From sequence record MZ501107: a stretch of 43,627 nucleotides of DNA; one strand, 5' to 3'. The DNA comes from Escherichia phage TheodorHerzl. The translations under genes and the position numbers were made by a program. The first letter of the stretch is position 1; every line of letters begins with the position of its first letter. The notes beneath the pieces are model-generated. The model was given only the letters and a program-made list of their open reading frames with translations, ran no database searches and was not told the origin of the DNA. Below are positions 5,541-39,020 of the stretch, piece after piece.

Positions 5541-5580
5541 GTGCAACCAATATAGTGCAACCAATACGCGGATTGCAAGC
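5541..5580 (-). promoter_or_regulatory. sigma70-like promoter for the clamp-fragment gene, containing two ATTGGTTGCA motif copies
   Basis: Minus-strand reading gives TTGCAA, an 18-nt spacer that includes ATTGGTTGCAC, then TATATT, with a second TTGGTTGCAC just downstream. Coordinates approximate. Confidence 0.5.
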
Positions 5581-21344: not shown

Positions 21345-21574
21345 TAGTTCCACTCCCGGGAGCCATAATCGCGAACGGAGCCGCCATGCCCTTTAATTCC
21401 GTCATAACGAATATCAACTTCACCCGCCGGAACGACTACACCGCCTTTCCATTTAGCCACACATACGCCGCTTGCTTGCGTAGCGCACCAACCATCCGGA
21501 CGCGGGCCAGAAGAGCAACCAACAGTTATTACTACTACCGCGGCAATGATTGCGGATTTGATTAAAGTTTTCAT
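21344..21574 (-). CDS. small outer-membrane lipoprotein (76 aa), candidate Cor/Llp-like superinfection-exclusion protein
   Basis: RBS GGAGAT upstream. Signal peptide with lipobox [20 protein letters not shown], and a mature part with two more Cys. Position next to the tail fibre genes matches where T1/phi80 cor and T5 llp sit. Confidence 0.55.
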
Positions 21575-21654
21575 GTTATCATCTCCTTTATTTGGTTGAG
21601 TTTTAGTATTACACCGCTCGATCAAGAATGCAACCAATTTAAGAGGATTTAGCT

Positions 21655-24592: not shown

Positions 24593-24622
24593 ACTATAAT
24601 GCAACCAACCTATTGGTTGCAA
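24593..24622 (-). promoter_or_regulatory. sigma70-like promoter containing a palindromic ATTGGTTGCA pair
   Basis: Minus strand reads TTGCAA, then the 18-nt spacer CCAATAGGTTGGTTGCAT, then TATAGT. The 8-4-8 palindrome GCAACCAA-nnnn-TTGGTTGC overlaps the 3-prime end of the HAD gene. Coordinates approximate. Confidence 0.55.
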
Positions 24623-26508: not shown

Positions 26509-26542
26509 AATATAATGCAACCAATATGATTATGCAACCAAT
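26509..26542 (-). promoter_or_regulatory. sigma70-like promoter TTGCAT-N17-TATATT built from two direct ATTGGTTGCAT copies
   Basis: Minus strand reads ATTGGTTGCAT AATCAT ATTGGTTGCAT TATATT. Coordinates approximate. Confidence 0.55.
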
Positions 26543-32860: not shown

Positions 32861-32950
32861 TTTCCAATTCCTCATTTTCACATGTATCGGGGTTATTGGA
32901 AGCCACCCCGTTCGGCTTGGTTGCCAATTTACTTGGTTGCGCCTGAGCGG

Positions 32951-35065: not shown

Positions 35066-35100
35066 CTCTAAAAAGAGGCCCGCTAATCTGCGGGCCGGAA
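35066..35100 (-). terminator. intrinsic terminator (minus strand) after the first early gene
   Basis: Minus strand GGCCCGC-AGATTAG-CGGGCC followed by TCTTTTT. Confidence 0.6.
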
Positions 35101-35104
35101 TATA

Positions 35105-35536
35105 TTAGTCTTCCAGTTCGAAATAGGTTTCGACGATTTCTTTTAGCTCTTTGTGGAAGTCTTCGACGTCGTCATCTTCCAGCTTGGCGATTGATTTGAT
35201 CTCGAACGATTCCAGCAGGTCGTCGAATTCGTCGTTCGCGTCGTCGTCGTCACCACCGGCAATAATCGCGGCATACTGTTTGATCTCGTCGCGCATCTCT
35301 GCCAGCGGATCGGCATCTTTCTTACCTTTGCCCTTCGCCGGTGCTTTTTTAGCTTTAGCCGGTTTTTCGTCTTCGGCGTCATCTTCGGCGTCATCTTCGA
35401 CAACTTCTTTTTTGGCCTTAGACGGCTTCTTGTCTTCCTGTTTACCAACGGCAGCGCCAACGGTTTCATAATGCTTTGCAATGGTTTCCAGTGCTACTAC
35501 GCCGCGAGTGATCAGGTTTACGATTTGCTCAAACAT
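35105..35536 (-). CDS. highly acidic protein with central Lys/Ala-rich segment; first gene of the leftward early operon
   Basis: 143 aa with RBS GGAGA. Rich in Asp/Glu (DDAEDDAEDE, GGDDDDANDEFDD, LEDDDVEDF), with a central KPAKAKKAPAKGKGKK segment. Confidence 0.6.
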   Translation of the reverse strand: MFEQIVNLITRGVVALETIAKHYETVGAAVGKQEDKKPSKAKKEVVEDDAEDDAEDEKPAKAKKAPAKGKGKKDADPLAEMRDEIKQYAAIIAGGDDDDANDEFDDLLESFEIKSIAKLEDDDVEDFHKELKEIVETYFELED

Positions 35537-35772
35537 GGTATATCTCCGATTGGTTAAGTTTAGGTGTCGGCAGTTAACTTCGTCGGTGGCCTTAACATAT
35601 TGCCAGGTTACGCGTTCTCCCGTTCGGGTAGTGGACCTGGTTATATAATCACGGTTGGGAATCCTGACACTTCGATCCGGCCCCTGCGTTGCCCCTCTCC
35701 AGTTTGCGTCCTGTATCCTGTCGACGGAGTGAATAATAGATTGGTTGCAGGATGGGTGTCAACAACTAATTT

Positions 35773-35807
35773 CAAAAAAAAGCGCCGAGGCAAAATGCGA
35801 CGGCGCT
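35773..35807 (-). terminator. orphan intrinsic terminator on the minus strand inside the divergent control region
   Basis: Minus strand AGCGCCG-TCGCATTTTGCCT-CGGCGCT followed by eight T. No annotated minus-strand gene lies upstream except a 36-codon ORF. Confidence 0.6.
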
Positions 35808-35916
35808 AACCAATGAGAGACAATGAGACGAGAATTATTATTACACGCGTGCGCGCCCGTTTCAATATCCAAAGGATTGGACACCTTGCGGTTTTAGGTG
35901 TAGTTTCGTTGGTCAT
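35806..35916 (-). other. candidate small RNA or 36-codon micro-ORF ending at the orphan terminator
   Basis: ORF MTNETTPKTARCPILWILKRARTRVIIILVSLSLIG with no clear Shine-Dalgarno; it ends at the terminator hairpin. Confidence 0.25.
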
Positions 35917-35937
35917 TAACCAACTGAGGGCAGAGCA

Positions 35938-36267
35938 ATGAATGTAAACGACGCAATCGAAATGTTAACGAAGACTGTTAGCAGTGAAACAAGCCGGTCA
36001 TGGGCTTATACCGATGCCGTTGGGGCGGTATTATTTGAGGTCGAGCGCCTGCGCAGTGTCGAGAAAGAATTACGCGCCAGGCTGGGATTGCTCAACGGCA
36101 CGGCAGCGAGCAAGCTACAAAAACACAATGAAGAAATGGAAGAATACAAAAAGCAGGTTATCCGTTTGCGCGCCGAGGGTAAATCGTGGGCGATGATTGC
36201 CGAGTTGACCGGGATTAATCAGAGCACAGTGCGCTCCTGGGTACGCAATAATAAAACTTCTAAGTAA
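35938..36267 (+). CDS. HTH DNA-binding protein (putative transcriptional regulator)
   Basis: 109 aa with RBS GAGGG. C-terminal helix-turn-helix KSWAMIAELTGINQSTVRSWVRNN. First gene of the rightward operon; a near-palindrome TTGGTCATTAACCAA overlaps its RBS region. Confidence 0.65.
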   Translation: MNVNDAIEMLTKTVSSETSRSWAYTDAVGAVLFEVERLRSVEKELRARLGLLNGTAASKLQKHNEEMEEYKKQVIRLRAEGKSWAMIAELTGINQSTVRSWVRNNKTSK

Positions 36268-38542: not shown

Positions 38543-38588
38543 ATTTTGCGCGCATTGGTTGCCATTTTGAGTGTTTTTATCTGGTCGT

Positions 38589-38616
38589 ATTGGTTGCCGT
38601 GTAGTGTAAGTATAAT
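38589..38616 (+). promoter_or_regulatory. ATTGGTTGCC motif copies followed by a TATAAT -10 box
   Basis: Motif copies at 38554-38563 and 38589-38598; TATAAT at 38611-38616 (anchored to the track ORF that starts at 38546). Confidence 0.4.
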
Positions 38617-38635
38617 GAATAGTTATGCAATAAAA

Positions 38636-38756
38636 CTGCATAAACCAAACGGGACAAAAAGCGGGACAAACACTAGGCGGGACAAAGCGGGACAGCACCC
38701 CCGTCCCGCCCCGGATGACGCGGCCTGGAGAGGAGCGGGACAGCGGGACAGCACCC
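38636..38756. repeat. GGGACA iteron block B (homologous to 11287-11400)
   Basis: GGGACA at 38651, 38663, 38679, 38689, 38738 and 38745. The block TGCATAAACCAAACGGGACAAAAAGCGGGACAAACACTAGGCGGGACAAAGCGGGACAGCACCCCCGTCCC is nearly identical to region A. Confidence 0.8.
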
Positions 38757-38803
38757 CAGTCTTTCAGACTAGACGGGGGTCAACGGCCCCCTCGTCTGAG
38801 ACT
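38757..38803 (+). repeat. conserved long imperfect hairpin B (copy of 11406-11453)
   Basis: CAGTCTTTCAGACTAGACGGGGGTCAACGGCCCCCTCGTCTGAGACT followed by GAATAA. Confidence 0.8.
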
Positions 38804-38958
38804 GAATAAAATCCGAGGATTGCAAATTACACGGCAGCATGTTGCGAAGTGCGGTCGCGGATGAACTAGGCAACCAATGCGAGTTGTATTATGCTGAGTG
38901 AAAAATGTGGTTTGCAGTCACAGCAGATAGCGATCGACTTTTTCATGCGCGTGATTAA

Positions 38959-38993
38959 TATTGGTTGCATTCACCCCGGCACCTTGTTATATT
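38959..38993 (+). promoter_or_regulatory. sigma70-like promoter TTGCAT-N17-TATATT with flanking ATTGGTTGCA copies
   Basis: ATTGGTTGCAT at 38959-38969; TATATT at 38988-38993, followed immediately by TGGTTGCAC. Lies about 30 nt upstream of the 39021 gene. Confidence 0.55.
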
Positions 38994-39020
38994 GGTTGCA
39001 CACCAACGGGAGGGCGGAAC

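Follow-up and report, generated by a model that had tools for sequence, protein, structure and literature searches.

What does a 400-bp gap between two divergent early operons contain, and how might it control the genes on either side? The window, that is, the whole 43,627-nt stretch analyzed here, is a Dhillonvirus genome of the HK578/SO-1 type, with 174 matches among phage records at 80-99% identity, almost all of them to Dhillonvirus. The gap between divergent genes that had been pointed out in the initial annotation was confirmed: positions 35537-35937 are flanked by a leftward gene for a 143-aa acidic protein (35105-35536, minus strand) and a rightward gene for a 109-aa HTH protein (35938-36267, plus strand). 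The latter is a candidate regulator assigned to PHROG 9366, with Pfam matches (HTH_23, HTH_28 and Sigma70_r4_2) that fall in residues 65-105; a related HTH domain, with 49% identity, is encoded in HK578. Among coliphages, Dhillonviruses and T1-like phages are common and easy to grow, yet their control of early expression is almost unstudied.

The explanation that we consider probable is a joint one, in which a hub of three promoters is combined with a folded, cis-acting leader RNA at the start of the leftward transcript and a small RNA that would dampen translation. All transcript ends in the gap were deduced from the nucleotide sequence. Even if the proposed RNAs fail, the analysis of this region still maps three promoters, a terminator and candidate operators in a poorly studied genus.

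Promoters and terminator of the early region

Judged by its sequence, the gap is an early transcription hub with three host-type sigma-70 promoters, P_R, P_s and P_L. These predicted promoters are consensus-like and conserved, and the depositors of the HK578 record independently annotated the equivalents of all three sites. P_L (35733-35762, minus strand), which would initiate the leftward replication and recombination operon, matches the consensus at 11 of 12 positions (TTGACA at 35762-35757, an 18-nt spacer and TATTAT at 35738-35733). It is located just beyond the minus-strand terminator described below, is conserved among the relatives, including those that lack the leader RNA, and contains in its spacer one GCAACCAAT box (35741-35748; the plus strand reads TTGGTTGC). 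P_s (35837-35865, minus strand), the putative small-RNA promoter, has 10 matches out of 12 (TTGAAA at 35865-35860, a 17-nt spacer and AATAAT at 35842-35837) and an extended -10 element with TG at -15/-14 (TGnAATAAT). The P_s site is also present in the related locus L010, has a spacer 2 nt shorter (15 nt) in L015, and gave no match in the promoter scan of L018, the most divergent relative. P_R (35878-35906, plus strand) consists of TGGACA at 35878-35883, which is TTGACA in relatives, a 17-nt spacer and TAGTTT at 35901-35906; the copy in the window scores 8/12 and for this reason was not flagged by the promoter scan. The -35 elements of P_R and P_s stand back to back, with 12 bp between them. 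P_R is predicted to drive the operon of the HTH regulator and the primase-helicase from a start at ~35913, inside a conserved inverted repeat.

The strong intrinsic terminator previously proposed on the minus strand, here denoted t_s, is borne out and extends over 35774-35807. Its hairpin (35807-35781) is built on a 7-bp stem, AGCGCCG..CGGCGCU, with an inner 3-bp GCA/UGC extension, and runs into U8 (35781-35774). The predicted stability is -16.7 kcal/mol (z = -4.1), with none of 200 shuffled sequences as stable, and compensatory changes convert GCGCCG/CGGCGC to UCCCCG/CGGGGA in L015 and in phage Ioannina; in L018, an unrelated hairpin with an A-run occupies the same position. A simple terminator scan misses t_s for the sole reason that it accepts no loop longer than 8 nt. 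Thus, t_s is a genuine conserved terminator with a functional appearance, at which transcripts are predicted to end in vivo, and it would also protect P_L from read-through of transcription from P_s.

The 36-codon ORF suggested to lie upstream of t_s exists (35806-35916, minus strand) but does not qualify as a gene. Among 20 variants, its frame comprises 7, 15, 24, 36, 48 or 49 codons, being shifted, truncated or extended from one relative to another, and its middle third is frame-shifted while the DNA is conserved. We give almost no credence to translation of this or any other micro-ORF into a leader peptide or micro-protein, for which t_s would serve as the attenuator: the ORF does end at the terminator, but apart from its inconstant frame, it lacks a Shine-Dalgarno sequence and has a start codon upstream of the predicted P_s start.

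The cumulative GC skew of the window reaches its minimum at 35-36 kb, but this is uninformative with regard to a replication origin because the minimum coincides with the switch in gene orientation. A search with ARAGORN detected no tRNA or tmRNA.

A structured leader RNA in the predicted P_L transcript

About half of the gap is taken up by the first ~160 nt of the predicted P_L transcript (35725 to 35566, minus strand), which appears to form a structured leader RNA domain of eight helices. Helix P1 (35725-35718 with 35573-35566) pairs the 5' end with a segment 150 nt downstream; P2 is a small hairpin with an invariant AGGA loop and a covarying stem; P3 to P6 make up a nearly invariant core; and there is a long covarying arm, P7'/P7a/P7b, in which the loops on P7b are mostly of the GNRA type.

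In a comparison of 32 distinct leader sequences, 96.7% of the cells were paired, compared to 32-41% in slid controls, and 20 pairs were changed on both sides, compared to 2-6 in the controls, although these counts lean toward the structure because the variable arms had been fitted to it by manual alignment. The covariation score was 0.40 against 0.02-0.07 in the controls, and none of 500 shuffles reached the observed value. Stems that covary throughout are also seen when the leaders of different genera are aligned. RNAalifold independently yielded the same helices, with 40 pairs, 19 of them compensatory. A covariance model produced its sole match in the window at 35564-35727 on the minus strand (163.8 bits), scored every member of the leader set at 133-169 bits, and had no match at E <= 1 either in 6 Dhillonvirus loci without a leader or in ~70 unrelated viral loci. 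On the leader strand, 107 G:U cells were counted against 26 A:C cells. Approximately 70 columns are invariant, many of them unpaired; helices P4, P5 and P6 fall outside the covariation test because they do not vary. Folded as a single sequence, the leader is no more stable than shuffled sequences (z = +1.1; z = +1.5 for the full UTR), and the comparative structure lies 12-17 kcal/mol above the minimum free energy of each sequence. Taken together, the comparisons show that the predicted fold covaries, belongs to the minus strand, starts at the predicted +1 and is common to several genera.

The TTATATAAT element, initially placed at ~35651-35659, is present at 35641-35649 and is not a promoter or a control element of its own: it lies in the P7 arm, where it makes up one side of an RNA helix and pairs with AUAUGU. 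It is conserved only in Dhillonvirus and is replaced in other genera by GGCC(A)GAA or UACGUAA.

The leader is represented in five named genera, Dhillonvirus, Hanrivervirus, Changchunvirus, Jilinvirus and Sortsnevirus, as well as in unclassified relatives. It was detected in ~136 records, compared to 153-174 Dhillonvirus records overall, and is missing in about a fifth of Dhillonviruses; in L004, L010, L012 and L015, it is neatly replaced by 12 nt (GCAUACCGCCCG). The leader-less phages retain the same promoter, RBS and downstream terminator, so that any benefit of the leader in cis is not essential, and these natural variants are ready-made deletion controls. The BASEL collection contains several phages with the leader.

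The position of the leader is as regular as its structure. In all but two of 31 upstream variants, the -10 element ends 30-34 nt 5' of the GGAGAGG anchor; the leader begins at +1 to +4 of a sigma-70 promoter, and the genes that flank it are always on the RNA strand. In every genus, it is followed by a G-poor linker and then by an RBS, which lies 25-40 nt downstream, at a nearly fixed distance. In the window, this segment (35537-35565, minus strand) consists of an unstructured C/A-rich linker with a UUAACCAAU box (35557-35549) and the Shine-Dalgarno sequence GGAG (35547-35544), ahead of the start codon of the 143-aa protein gene (35536-35534, minus strand). In 13 contexts, the first ORFs after the leader show no homology to one another, and a search for a partner protein from -4 to +5 kb relative to the leader revealed no family common to at least three lineages.

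A protein-coding role for the leader was rejected, since every frame is closed in at least one lineage and the lineages differ from each other by 1-nt indels. Protein genes have been annotated over the leader in some records, such as that of SO-1, where gp46 is extended, and several Dhillonvirus entries with "hypothetical proteins"; the leader RNA corrects such annotations.

No copies of the leader were found in 5,426 E. coli genomes or in 72,556 plasmids, and among 185,579 species genomes, there was one match, in a phage-like 42.8-kb contig binned as Cereibacter. A gapped pattern proved too loose, returning 120 mostly random loci that were used as negatives for the covariance model; an additional locus, L060 (pattern GGAGAGGNGNAACGCNGGGGC), was a chance match. 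No Rfam 15 family reached its gathering threshold anywhere in the window; over the leader, there was no match at E <= 10 on either strand in the window and none at E <= 0.1 in 7 loci from other genera. No description of the leader or of the small RNA was found in searches of the literature; a catalogue of candidate structured RNAs of viral genomes (Fremin et al. 2023, PMC10690425) contains 10,006 unnamed candidates, to which the leader might belong.

Possible functions of the leader

That an RNA of 160 nt with ~70 invariant positions is conserved across genera with unrelated flanking genes suggests a specific contact with some component of the host. Our preferred reading is that the leader is a portable, gene-independent 5' module that probably acts in cis and, by means of a host factor to which it binds, boosts the yield of the early transcript. 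Possible routes are protection of the 5' end, recruitment of ribosomes via the exposed GGAGAGG and AGGA, and transcript elongation. The most far-reaching version of this scenario, that the leader represents a new class of phage RNA that docks onto a conserved enterobacterial machine and is exchanged among virulent siphophages as a portable unit of promoter and RNA, with the 56-nt RNA tuning both early operons, is offered tentatively and is, as a whole, doubtful. The machine in question might be RNA polymerase, the ribosome, a global RNA-binding regulator or a defence system, and the leader would then give any cassette behind it an early head start in infection.

The leader might instead function in trans, as a stand-alone RNA that titrates a host protein in the manner of a decoy or sponge, for example in anti-defence or as a CsrA-type GGA target, possibly after cleavage in the A/C-rich linker. 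A patchy distribution within Dhillonvirus along with presence in unrelated genera is typical of accessory early functions, and the unrelated downstream genes, the lack of a partner protein encoded nearby and the abundance of invariant, often unpaired positions, including the AGGA loop on its covarying stem and further GGA motifs, all suit a decoy. We nevertheless find this unlikely: there is no terminator or recognizable processing site after P1; the leader always precedes an RBS by 25-40 nt, and this nearly fixed distance suggests a link in cis; and there are just 3-5 GGA motifs, one of which is predicted to be paired. Leaders and sponges that bind CsrA/RsmA are exemplified by the flhDC leader and CsrB, respectively. 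Like these, the phage leader, a candidate CsrA target, has an invariant AGGA hairpin loop near the 5' end and other GGA motifs, including the Shine-Dalgarno sequence; unlike in these, most of its invariant nucleotides (AGAACGC, CCGACGAAG, CAC and the P4-P6 core) are left unexplained by GGA sites.

Processive antitermination by RNA only, as in put of phage HK022 and EAR of Bacillus, would similarly involve a structured RNA located just 3' of an early promoter and indifferent to the downstream gene. Under this scenario, the nascent leader would bind its own polymerase and enable it to read through terminators such as that at 35096-35077, a strong one (7 G-C pairs and a T-run) that follows the first leftward gene and has ~10 kb more genes beyond it; phage PT1 also has a terminator inside the operon. 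However, the terminator at 35096-35077 is equally present in the leader-less phages and thus does not co-occur with the leader, and a search for downstream terminators found none in slyngel or IME279. Furthermore, put consists of two stem-loops in ~70 nt; the 160-nt leader with its eight helices differs from these systems in fold and size and has no sequence relation to them. We regard this scenario as distinctly unlikely.

Less likely still is a riboswitch that responds to a small molecule or ion. A conserved aptamer-like domain was found, given the eight helices and ~70 invariant columns, and the closing P1, multi-helix junction, invariant unpaired junction nucleotides, covarying stems and location in the 5' UTR are all features shared with riboswitches and the cis-acting leaders of Rfam. 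Unlike those, the phage leader has no expression platform: P1 and the RBS are separated only by a variable, unstructured A/C-rich linker, with neither a terminator nor a conserved anti-Shine-Dalgarno alternative after P1. Neither is there a link to gene function, the genes in the 13 downstream contexts being unrelated and none of them metabolic, nor a match in Rfam 15.

A candidate small RNA and the AACCAAT boxes

P_s lies ~8 nt upstream of a 24-nt unstructured segment that is followed directly by t_s. From this geometry, P_s would produce an RNA of ~56 nt (35774-35829, minus strand; start site placed by the P_s -10 position) that consists of GUCUCAUUGUCUCUCAUUGGUUAG followed by the terminator hairpin and U8 and ends at the conserved terminator. 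The 24-nt 5' segment is unpaired in the predicted fold and nearly invariant among 19 variants, and its AGACAATGAG portion is retained in L018, which is otherwise unalignable. Of the two products that the initial annotation considered, a small RNA and a leader peptide, the former agrees with the conserved P_s and terminator, and the latter is contradicted by the frame breaks; the evidence supports the small RNA, a candidate for the trans-acting Hfq type with its own predicted promoter and terminator and a conserved single-stranded seed, as a much better reading than the peptide. As for the proposed antisense relation to the region upstream of the HTH gene, the small RNA would not be cis-antisense to the HTH transcript: P_R is predicted to start at ~35913, and the small RNA spans 35829-35774. 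Near-matches in Rfam (ncS54 and others) reflect only the generic terminator shape of the small RNA.

Both flanking first genes have translation start regions complementary to the 5' segment. When the small RNA was compared with 61 translation start regions, the HTH gene ranked best, at -22.1 kcal/mol, and the leftward gene seventh. Pairing with the HTH gene is predicted in 19 relatives at -17 to -22.5 kcal/mol (p <= 0.02), and pairing with the leftward gene at ~-18 kcal/mol (p <= 0.015), save in L015 (-14.0 kcal/mol, p = 0.065); for HK578, the predicted pairing at the HTH start is weak (-14.4 kcal/mol, p = 0.08). In a genome-wide scan, the duplex energies were no better than those of shuffled seeds. 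In the mechanism that we favor, UUGGUUA and the CU-rich stretch of the small RNA would pair, in each of the two divergent operons, with the UUAACCAAU/C box and the Shine-Dalgarno sequence that belong to the first gene, and would lower translation of both genes. If real, the 56-nt RNA would add a trans-acting riboregulator to a strictly virulent coliphage.

The oop RNA of lambda and the sar RNA of P22 are short phage transcripts, each with a promoter of its own and an intrinsic terminator at the end. The candidate resembles them in size (~55-80 nt), in the constitutive-looking sigma-70 promoter, the unstructured 5' part and the GC hairpin with a U-tail, and in its location within an early regulatory region. 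In contrast to oop and sar, which are cis-antisense to their targets, the putative RNA overlaps no predicted transcript and would act 90-270 nt away via partial complementarity.

About half of the predicted duplex is contributed by the AACCAAT box, which is also part of a DNA motif that recurs throughout the genome and confounds the pairing result. The ATTGGTT copies reported earlier in the gap are indeed present, and three were located, at 35549, 35740 and 35808 (minus strand). In the window, ATTGGTT occurs 17 times against 5.7 expected, and the longer motif TTGGTTGC/GCAACCAA occurs 20 times against 1.9 expected, with copies that are usually intergenic, directly 5' of -10-like hexamers and often paired. 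Within the gap, the boxes are found in the P_L spacer, as a pair of half-sites on the P_R start and at +15 to +22 of P_s.

The pair on the P_R start forms the inverted repeat TTGGTcattaACCAA (35909-35923; extended form GTTGGT-N5-ACCAAC, 35908-35924). This is the near-palindrome TTGGTCATTAACCAA that had been placed at ~35915-35929; the element itself exists, but its position is 35909-35923, and it is separated by one base from the Shine-Dalgarno sequence TGAGGG (35925-35930) instead of overlapping the RBS. The repeat is near-invariant in the aligned Dhillonvirus relatives, one of which differs at a single base, and HK578 lacks it. The UUAACCAAC box in the leader of the HTH mRNA is the right half of the repeat, which also pairs with 35550-57 as an inverted repeat. 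It is a plausible candidate operator because it sits exactly on the predicted P_R start.

These boxes bring up an explanation at the DNA level, in which P_s and t_s yield no trans-acting product: P_s would be a divergent promoter competing with P_R, t_s an insulator for P_L, and the AACCAAT boxes operators for a phage protein, possibly the HTH protein, with the RNA complementarity a by-product of boxes that are common in the genome. We consider this a real possibility, though not the one that we expect. The excess and placement of the TTGGTTGC/GCAACCAA motif, the locations of the boxes at all three promoters and the unremarkable duplex energies genome-wide all fit it, as does the same order of terminator, promoter and leader in phage PT1 and in L031, where the terminator merely ends the upstream gene. 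Yet an insulator needs no conserved transcript, and the 24-nt 5' part is almost invariant, with AGACAATGAG kept even in L018; the boxes near both RBSs precede complementary Shine-Dalgarno matches, which a DNA operator would not need; and HK578 lacks the P_R box despite its related HTH domain. The translation-damping small RNA stays part of the joint explanation given above.

Phage TLS carries 18 intergenic 21-nt repeats, the function of which was left as an open question (PMC11447400). Like the repeats of TLS and T1-like phages, the motif described here is short, phage-specific, present in many copies and located in intergenic regions 5' of genes; unlike the TLS repeats, the Dhillonvirus motif is GCAACCAAT, occurs in both orientations and is clustered after the primase gene.

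Anatomy of the divergent early control region

The gap between the two divergent early operons of Escherichia phage TheodorHerzl (35537-35937) is a real and, as a cluster of promoters and a terminator, largely ordinary control region. It also contains a structured RNA family that is well supported and, it appears, not described before, and a plausible small RNA. For the 1.4 kb around the gap, 174 phage records show 80-99% identity; almost all are from Dhillonvirus (HK578, SO-1, SSL-2009a and others). On the left, the gap is bordered by the gene for a 143-aa acidic protein (35105-35536, minus), with small ORFs and then a DUF2800/PD-(D/E)XK exonuclease gene farther leftward; on the right, by the gene for a 109-aa protein whose C-terminal domain is HTH_23/HTH_28/sigma-70-region-4-like, next to which lies the primase-helicase gene. 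Public records annotate no RNA or terminator within the gap, and the HK578 record annotates three promoters. All gap features listed in the initial annotation are present, with two coordinates corrected here (TTATATAAT lies at 35641-35649 and TTGGTCATTAACCAA at 35909-35923).

The 143-aa protein is also lysine-rich, and its length differs among loci of related phages (L001, L002, L004, L010, L012, L015) via internal repeat indels of ~90-220 bp; in phage welsh, a repeat_region is annotated within the gene. The terminator following it (35077-35096, minus) has a 6-nt loop whose orientation differs between relatives: some read AGATTA and others TAATCT, minor variants such as TAATAT also occurring, as if the loop had been flipped repeatedly. 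HK578 (locus L058, 814-1304) carries a swapped module: its DNA proximal to the predicted rightward promoter P_R lacks the TTGGT-N5-ACCAA repeat, and its HTH protein has 142 aa, a different N-terminus and an HTH domain that is 49% identical.

A structured leader RNA family

A segment of ~140-160 bp (35566-35725) is absent from five relatives, in which the alignment shows 12 nt cleanly in its place. With the segment as query, BLAST detected its 52-nt core (86-94% identity) in the non-coding DNA of other genera, namely, Hanrivervirus (slyngel, JK16 and others), Changchunvirus PHB17, Jilinvirus PT1 and Sortsnevirus IME279, as well as Enterobacter phage Arya, Klebsiella phage KA2-1 and Bas97. In all, 170 records match; scanning viral, metagenome and genome collections for sequence patterns yielded additional copies, and the E. 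coli chromosomes and plasmids searched contain none.

The adjoining genes are always on the strand corresponding to the minus strand of the window. With two exceptions, the 31 upstream variants have a sigma-70-like -10 element whose end is 30-34 nt 5' of an invariant GGAGAGG, which would put the start of the leader RNA at +1 to +4 of a transcript; in the window, the predicted promoter is P_L (35733-35762, minus; TTGACA, 18-nt spacer, TATTAT; 11 of 12 matches). The leader structure is succeeded, after 25-40 nt, by a ribosome-binding site and a start codon. The proteins encoded just after it are unrelated in 13 contexts, and no protein family near the leader is common to three or more lineages.

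One stem in the segment covaries, reading CCAGG/CCTGG, CCCGG/CCGGG or CCTGG/CCAGG. From an anchor-based alignment of 32 distinct sequences (gaps treated as N, register preserved by MAFFT), we propose an eight-helix fold, in which P1 pairs the 5' end of the leader with a segment ~150 nt downstream; an invariant AGGA forms the loop of a small hairpin, P2; P3-P6 form a near-invariant core; and the long arm made up of P7', P7a and P7b has a conserved internal loop and tetraloops that are mostly GNRA. In this alignment, whose arms were placed by hand to fit the structure, which biases the pair counts in its favour, 96.7% of 1,356 cells are paired, a share that drops to 32-41% if partners are displaced by 1-3 columns; 20 pairs changed on both sides versus 2-6 in these slid controls, and the covariation score is 0.40 versus 0.02-0.07, a value reached by 0 of 500 shuffles. 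RNAalifold, run on the same alignment, recovered 40 of the proposed pairs, 19 of them compensatory. G:U cells (107) outnumber A:C cells (26), which fits an RNA encoded on the minus strand; P4-P6, being invariant, provide no covariation test. In single-sequence folding, stability does not exceed that of shuffles, and the consensus fold lies 12-17 kcal/mol above the minimum free energy of each sequence; the minimum-energy fold of slyngel recovers most of the proposed helices.

In the window, a covariance model detects a single copy (35564-35727, minus, 163.8 bits); it also detects one in every known member (133-169 bits) and, at E <= 1, nothing in leader-less Dhillonviruses or ~70 unrelated viral loci. 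The initial annotation took TTATATAAT for an element of its own; it is the 5' strand of P7', where different sequences in other genera maintain the pairing.

The leader matches no family in Rfam 15; tRNA and tmRNA were ruled out, and there is no conserved reading frame. Its position resembles that of riboswitch aptamers and put/EAR elements. A riboswitch is unlikely: the leader lacks an expression platform and a tie to any gene function. A put-like antitermination element gains no support: phages with and without the leader alike have the strong terminator that follows the first leftward gene (35096-35077), and two other genera show no downstream terminators. The literature searched contains no description of this RNA or of the candidate small RNA discussed below; the leader could be among the 10,006 unnamed candidate RNAs of Fremin et al. 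2023 (PMC10690425).

Several CDSs annotated across the leader, namely, SO-1 gp46 extended to 202 aa (L003, 1606-2214), the 3' end of the PHB17 'DNA methyltransferase' (L020, 2564-3322) and 'hypothetical proteins' in several Dhillonvirus records, are likely over-annotations. The leader is also carried by L057 (QFQS01000013.1), a phage-sized contig of 42,764 bp filed as a Cereibacter sphaeroides metagenome-assembled genome, which is probably a mis-binned phage genome; its leader and first downstream protein resemble their counterparts in Klebsiella phage IME279. A 19-nt imperfect direct repeat, GGTGTCNNCANNTAANTTC (35563-35581 and 35755-35773, 74% identity), flanks the leader and P_L together and may be a trace of module insertion or due to chance.

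A terminator and a candidate small RNA

The initial annotation rightly recognized a minus-strand terminator, t_s (35774-35807; AGCGCCG..CGGCGCU plus U8; -16.7 kcal/mol, z = -4.1, with 0 of 200 shuffles equally stable), which a simple terminator scan misses only because it limits loops to <= 8 nt. Among the relatives aligned (19, later 10), compensatory changes, GCGCCG/CGGCGC to UCCCCG/CGGGGA, preserve the hairpin in L015 and phage Ioannina, and L018, the most divergent relative, has an unrelated hairpin and A-run in this position. The 36-codon micro-ORF suggested upstream proved to be a misreading: its middle third is frame-shifted by one-nucleotide indels while the DNA is conserved, and the frame is shortened in some phages (7, 15 or 24 codons) and lengthened in others (48-49).

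A promoter-like site upstream of t_s, P_s (35865-35837, minus; TTGAAA, 17-nt spacer, AATAAT with a preceding TG; 10 of 12 matches), is conserved in the main clade and annotated in HK578. Starting near 35829, its product would be a plausible small RNA of 56 nt (35774-35829, minus), comprising a 24-nt unstructured 5' part, almost unchanged across 19 variants, and the t_s hairpin with U8. Phage lambda oop and P22 sar are short promoter-to-terminator transcripts as well, but are cis-antisense, unlike this RNA. It is complementary to the UUAACCAA(U/C) box and Shine-Dalgarno sequence ahead of the first gene in both divergent operons. When 61 translation start regions of the window are ranked as predicted partners, the HTH gene comes first (-22.1 kcal/mol) and the first leftward gene 7th. 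In relatives, pairing with the HTH gene reaches -17 to -22.5 kcal/mol (p <= 0.02 vs shuffled targets), and that with the leftward gene, ~-18 kcal/mol in all except L015 (-14.0, p = 0.065); in HK578, with its swapped HTH module, pairing with the HTH gene is weak (-14.4 kcal/mol, p = 0.08). The genome-wide duplex scan performed no better than shuffled seeds, and half of the predicted duplex is an AACCAAT box that is also part of a DNA motif. A tandem CAATGAGA repeat lies within the small-RNA gene (35811-35828, plus); this 8-mer, with 4 copies versus 0.9 expected, also spans the start codons of two leftward genes (26461, 31912).

From this anatomy, which is what the sequence analysis shows, we infer how the region might work. 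P_R (35878-35906, plus) and P_s would fire back to back, with the P_s transcript stopping at t_s, which would also shield P_L from read-through. The mRNA of the leftward operon would come from P_L, with its 5' end held in a 160-nt domain that appears portable among phages and indifferent to the following gene. Our best guess is that the leader works in cis, offering a platform to a host factor that enhances early expression; a decoy RNA acting in trans is the chief rival.

Dispersed sequence boxes

ATTGGTT occurs 17 times in the window versus 5.7 expected, and TTGGTTGC/GCAACCAA(T), 20 times versus 1.9. AACCAAT/GCAACCAAT boxes lie in the P_L spacer, at the P_R start site, inside the small RNA and beside both ribosome-binding sites, and may be sites for a DNA-binding regulator, for RNA pairing or for both. 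Phage TLS carries unexplained 21-nt repeats (PMC11447400), and the Dhillonvirus motif is similarly dispersed. The GCAACCAA(T)/TTGGTTGC copies (5543-5564, 21515-21637, 24601-24620, 26517-26541, 32917-32940, 38555-38999, 39721 and others) are mostly intergenic, frequently paired and frequently located just 5' of a -10-like hexamer. Five are grouped in the 650-bp gap downstream of the primase-helicase gene (38555-38999), a cluster that looks like an iteron or operator set and may mark an origin.
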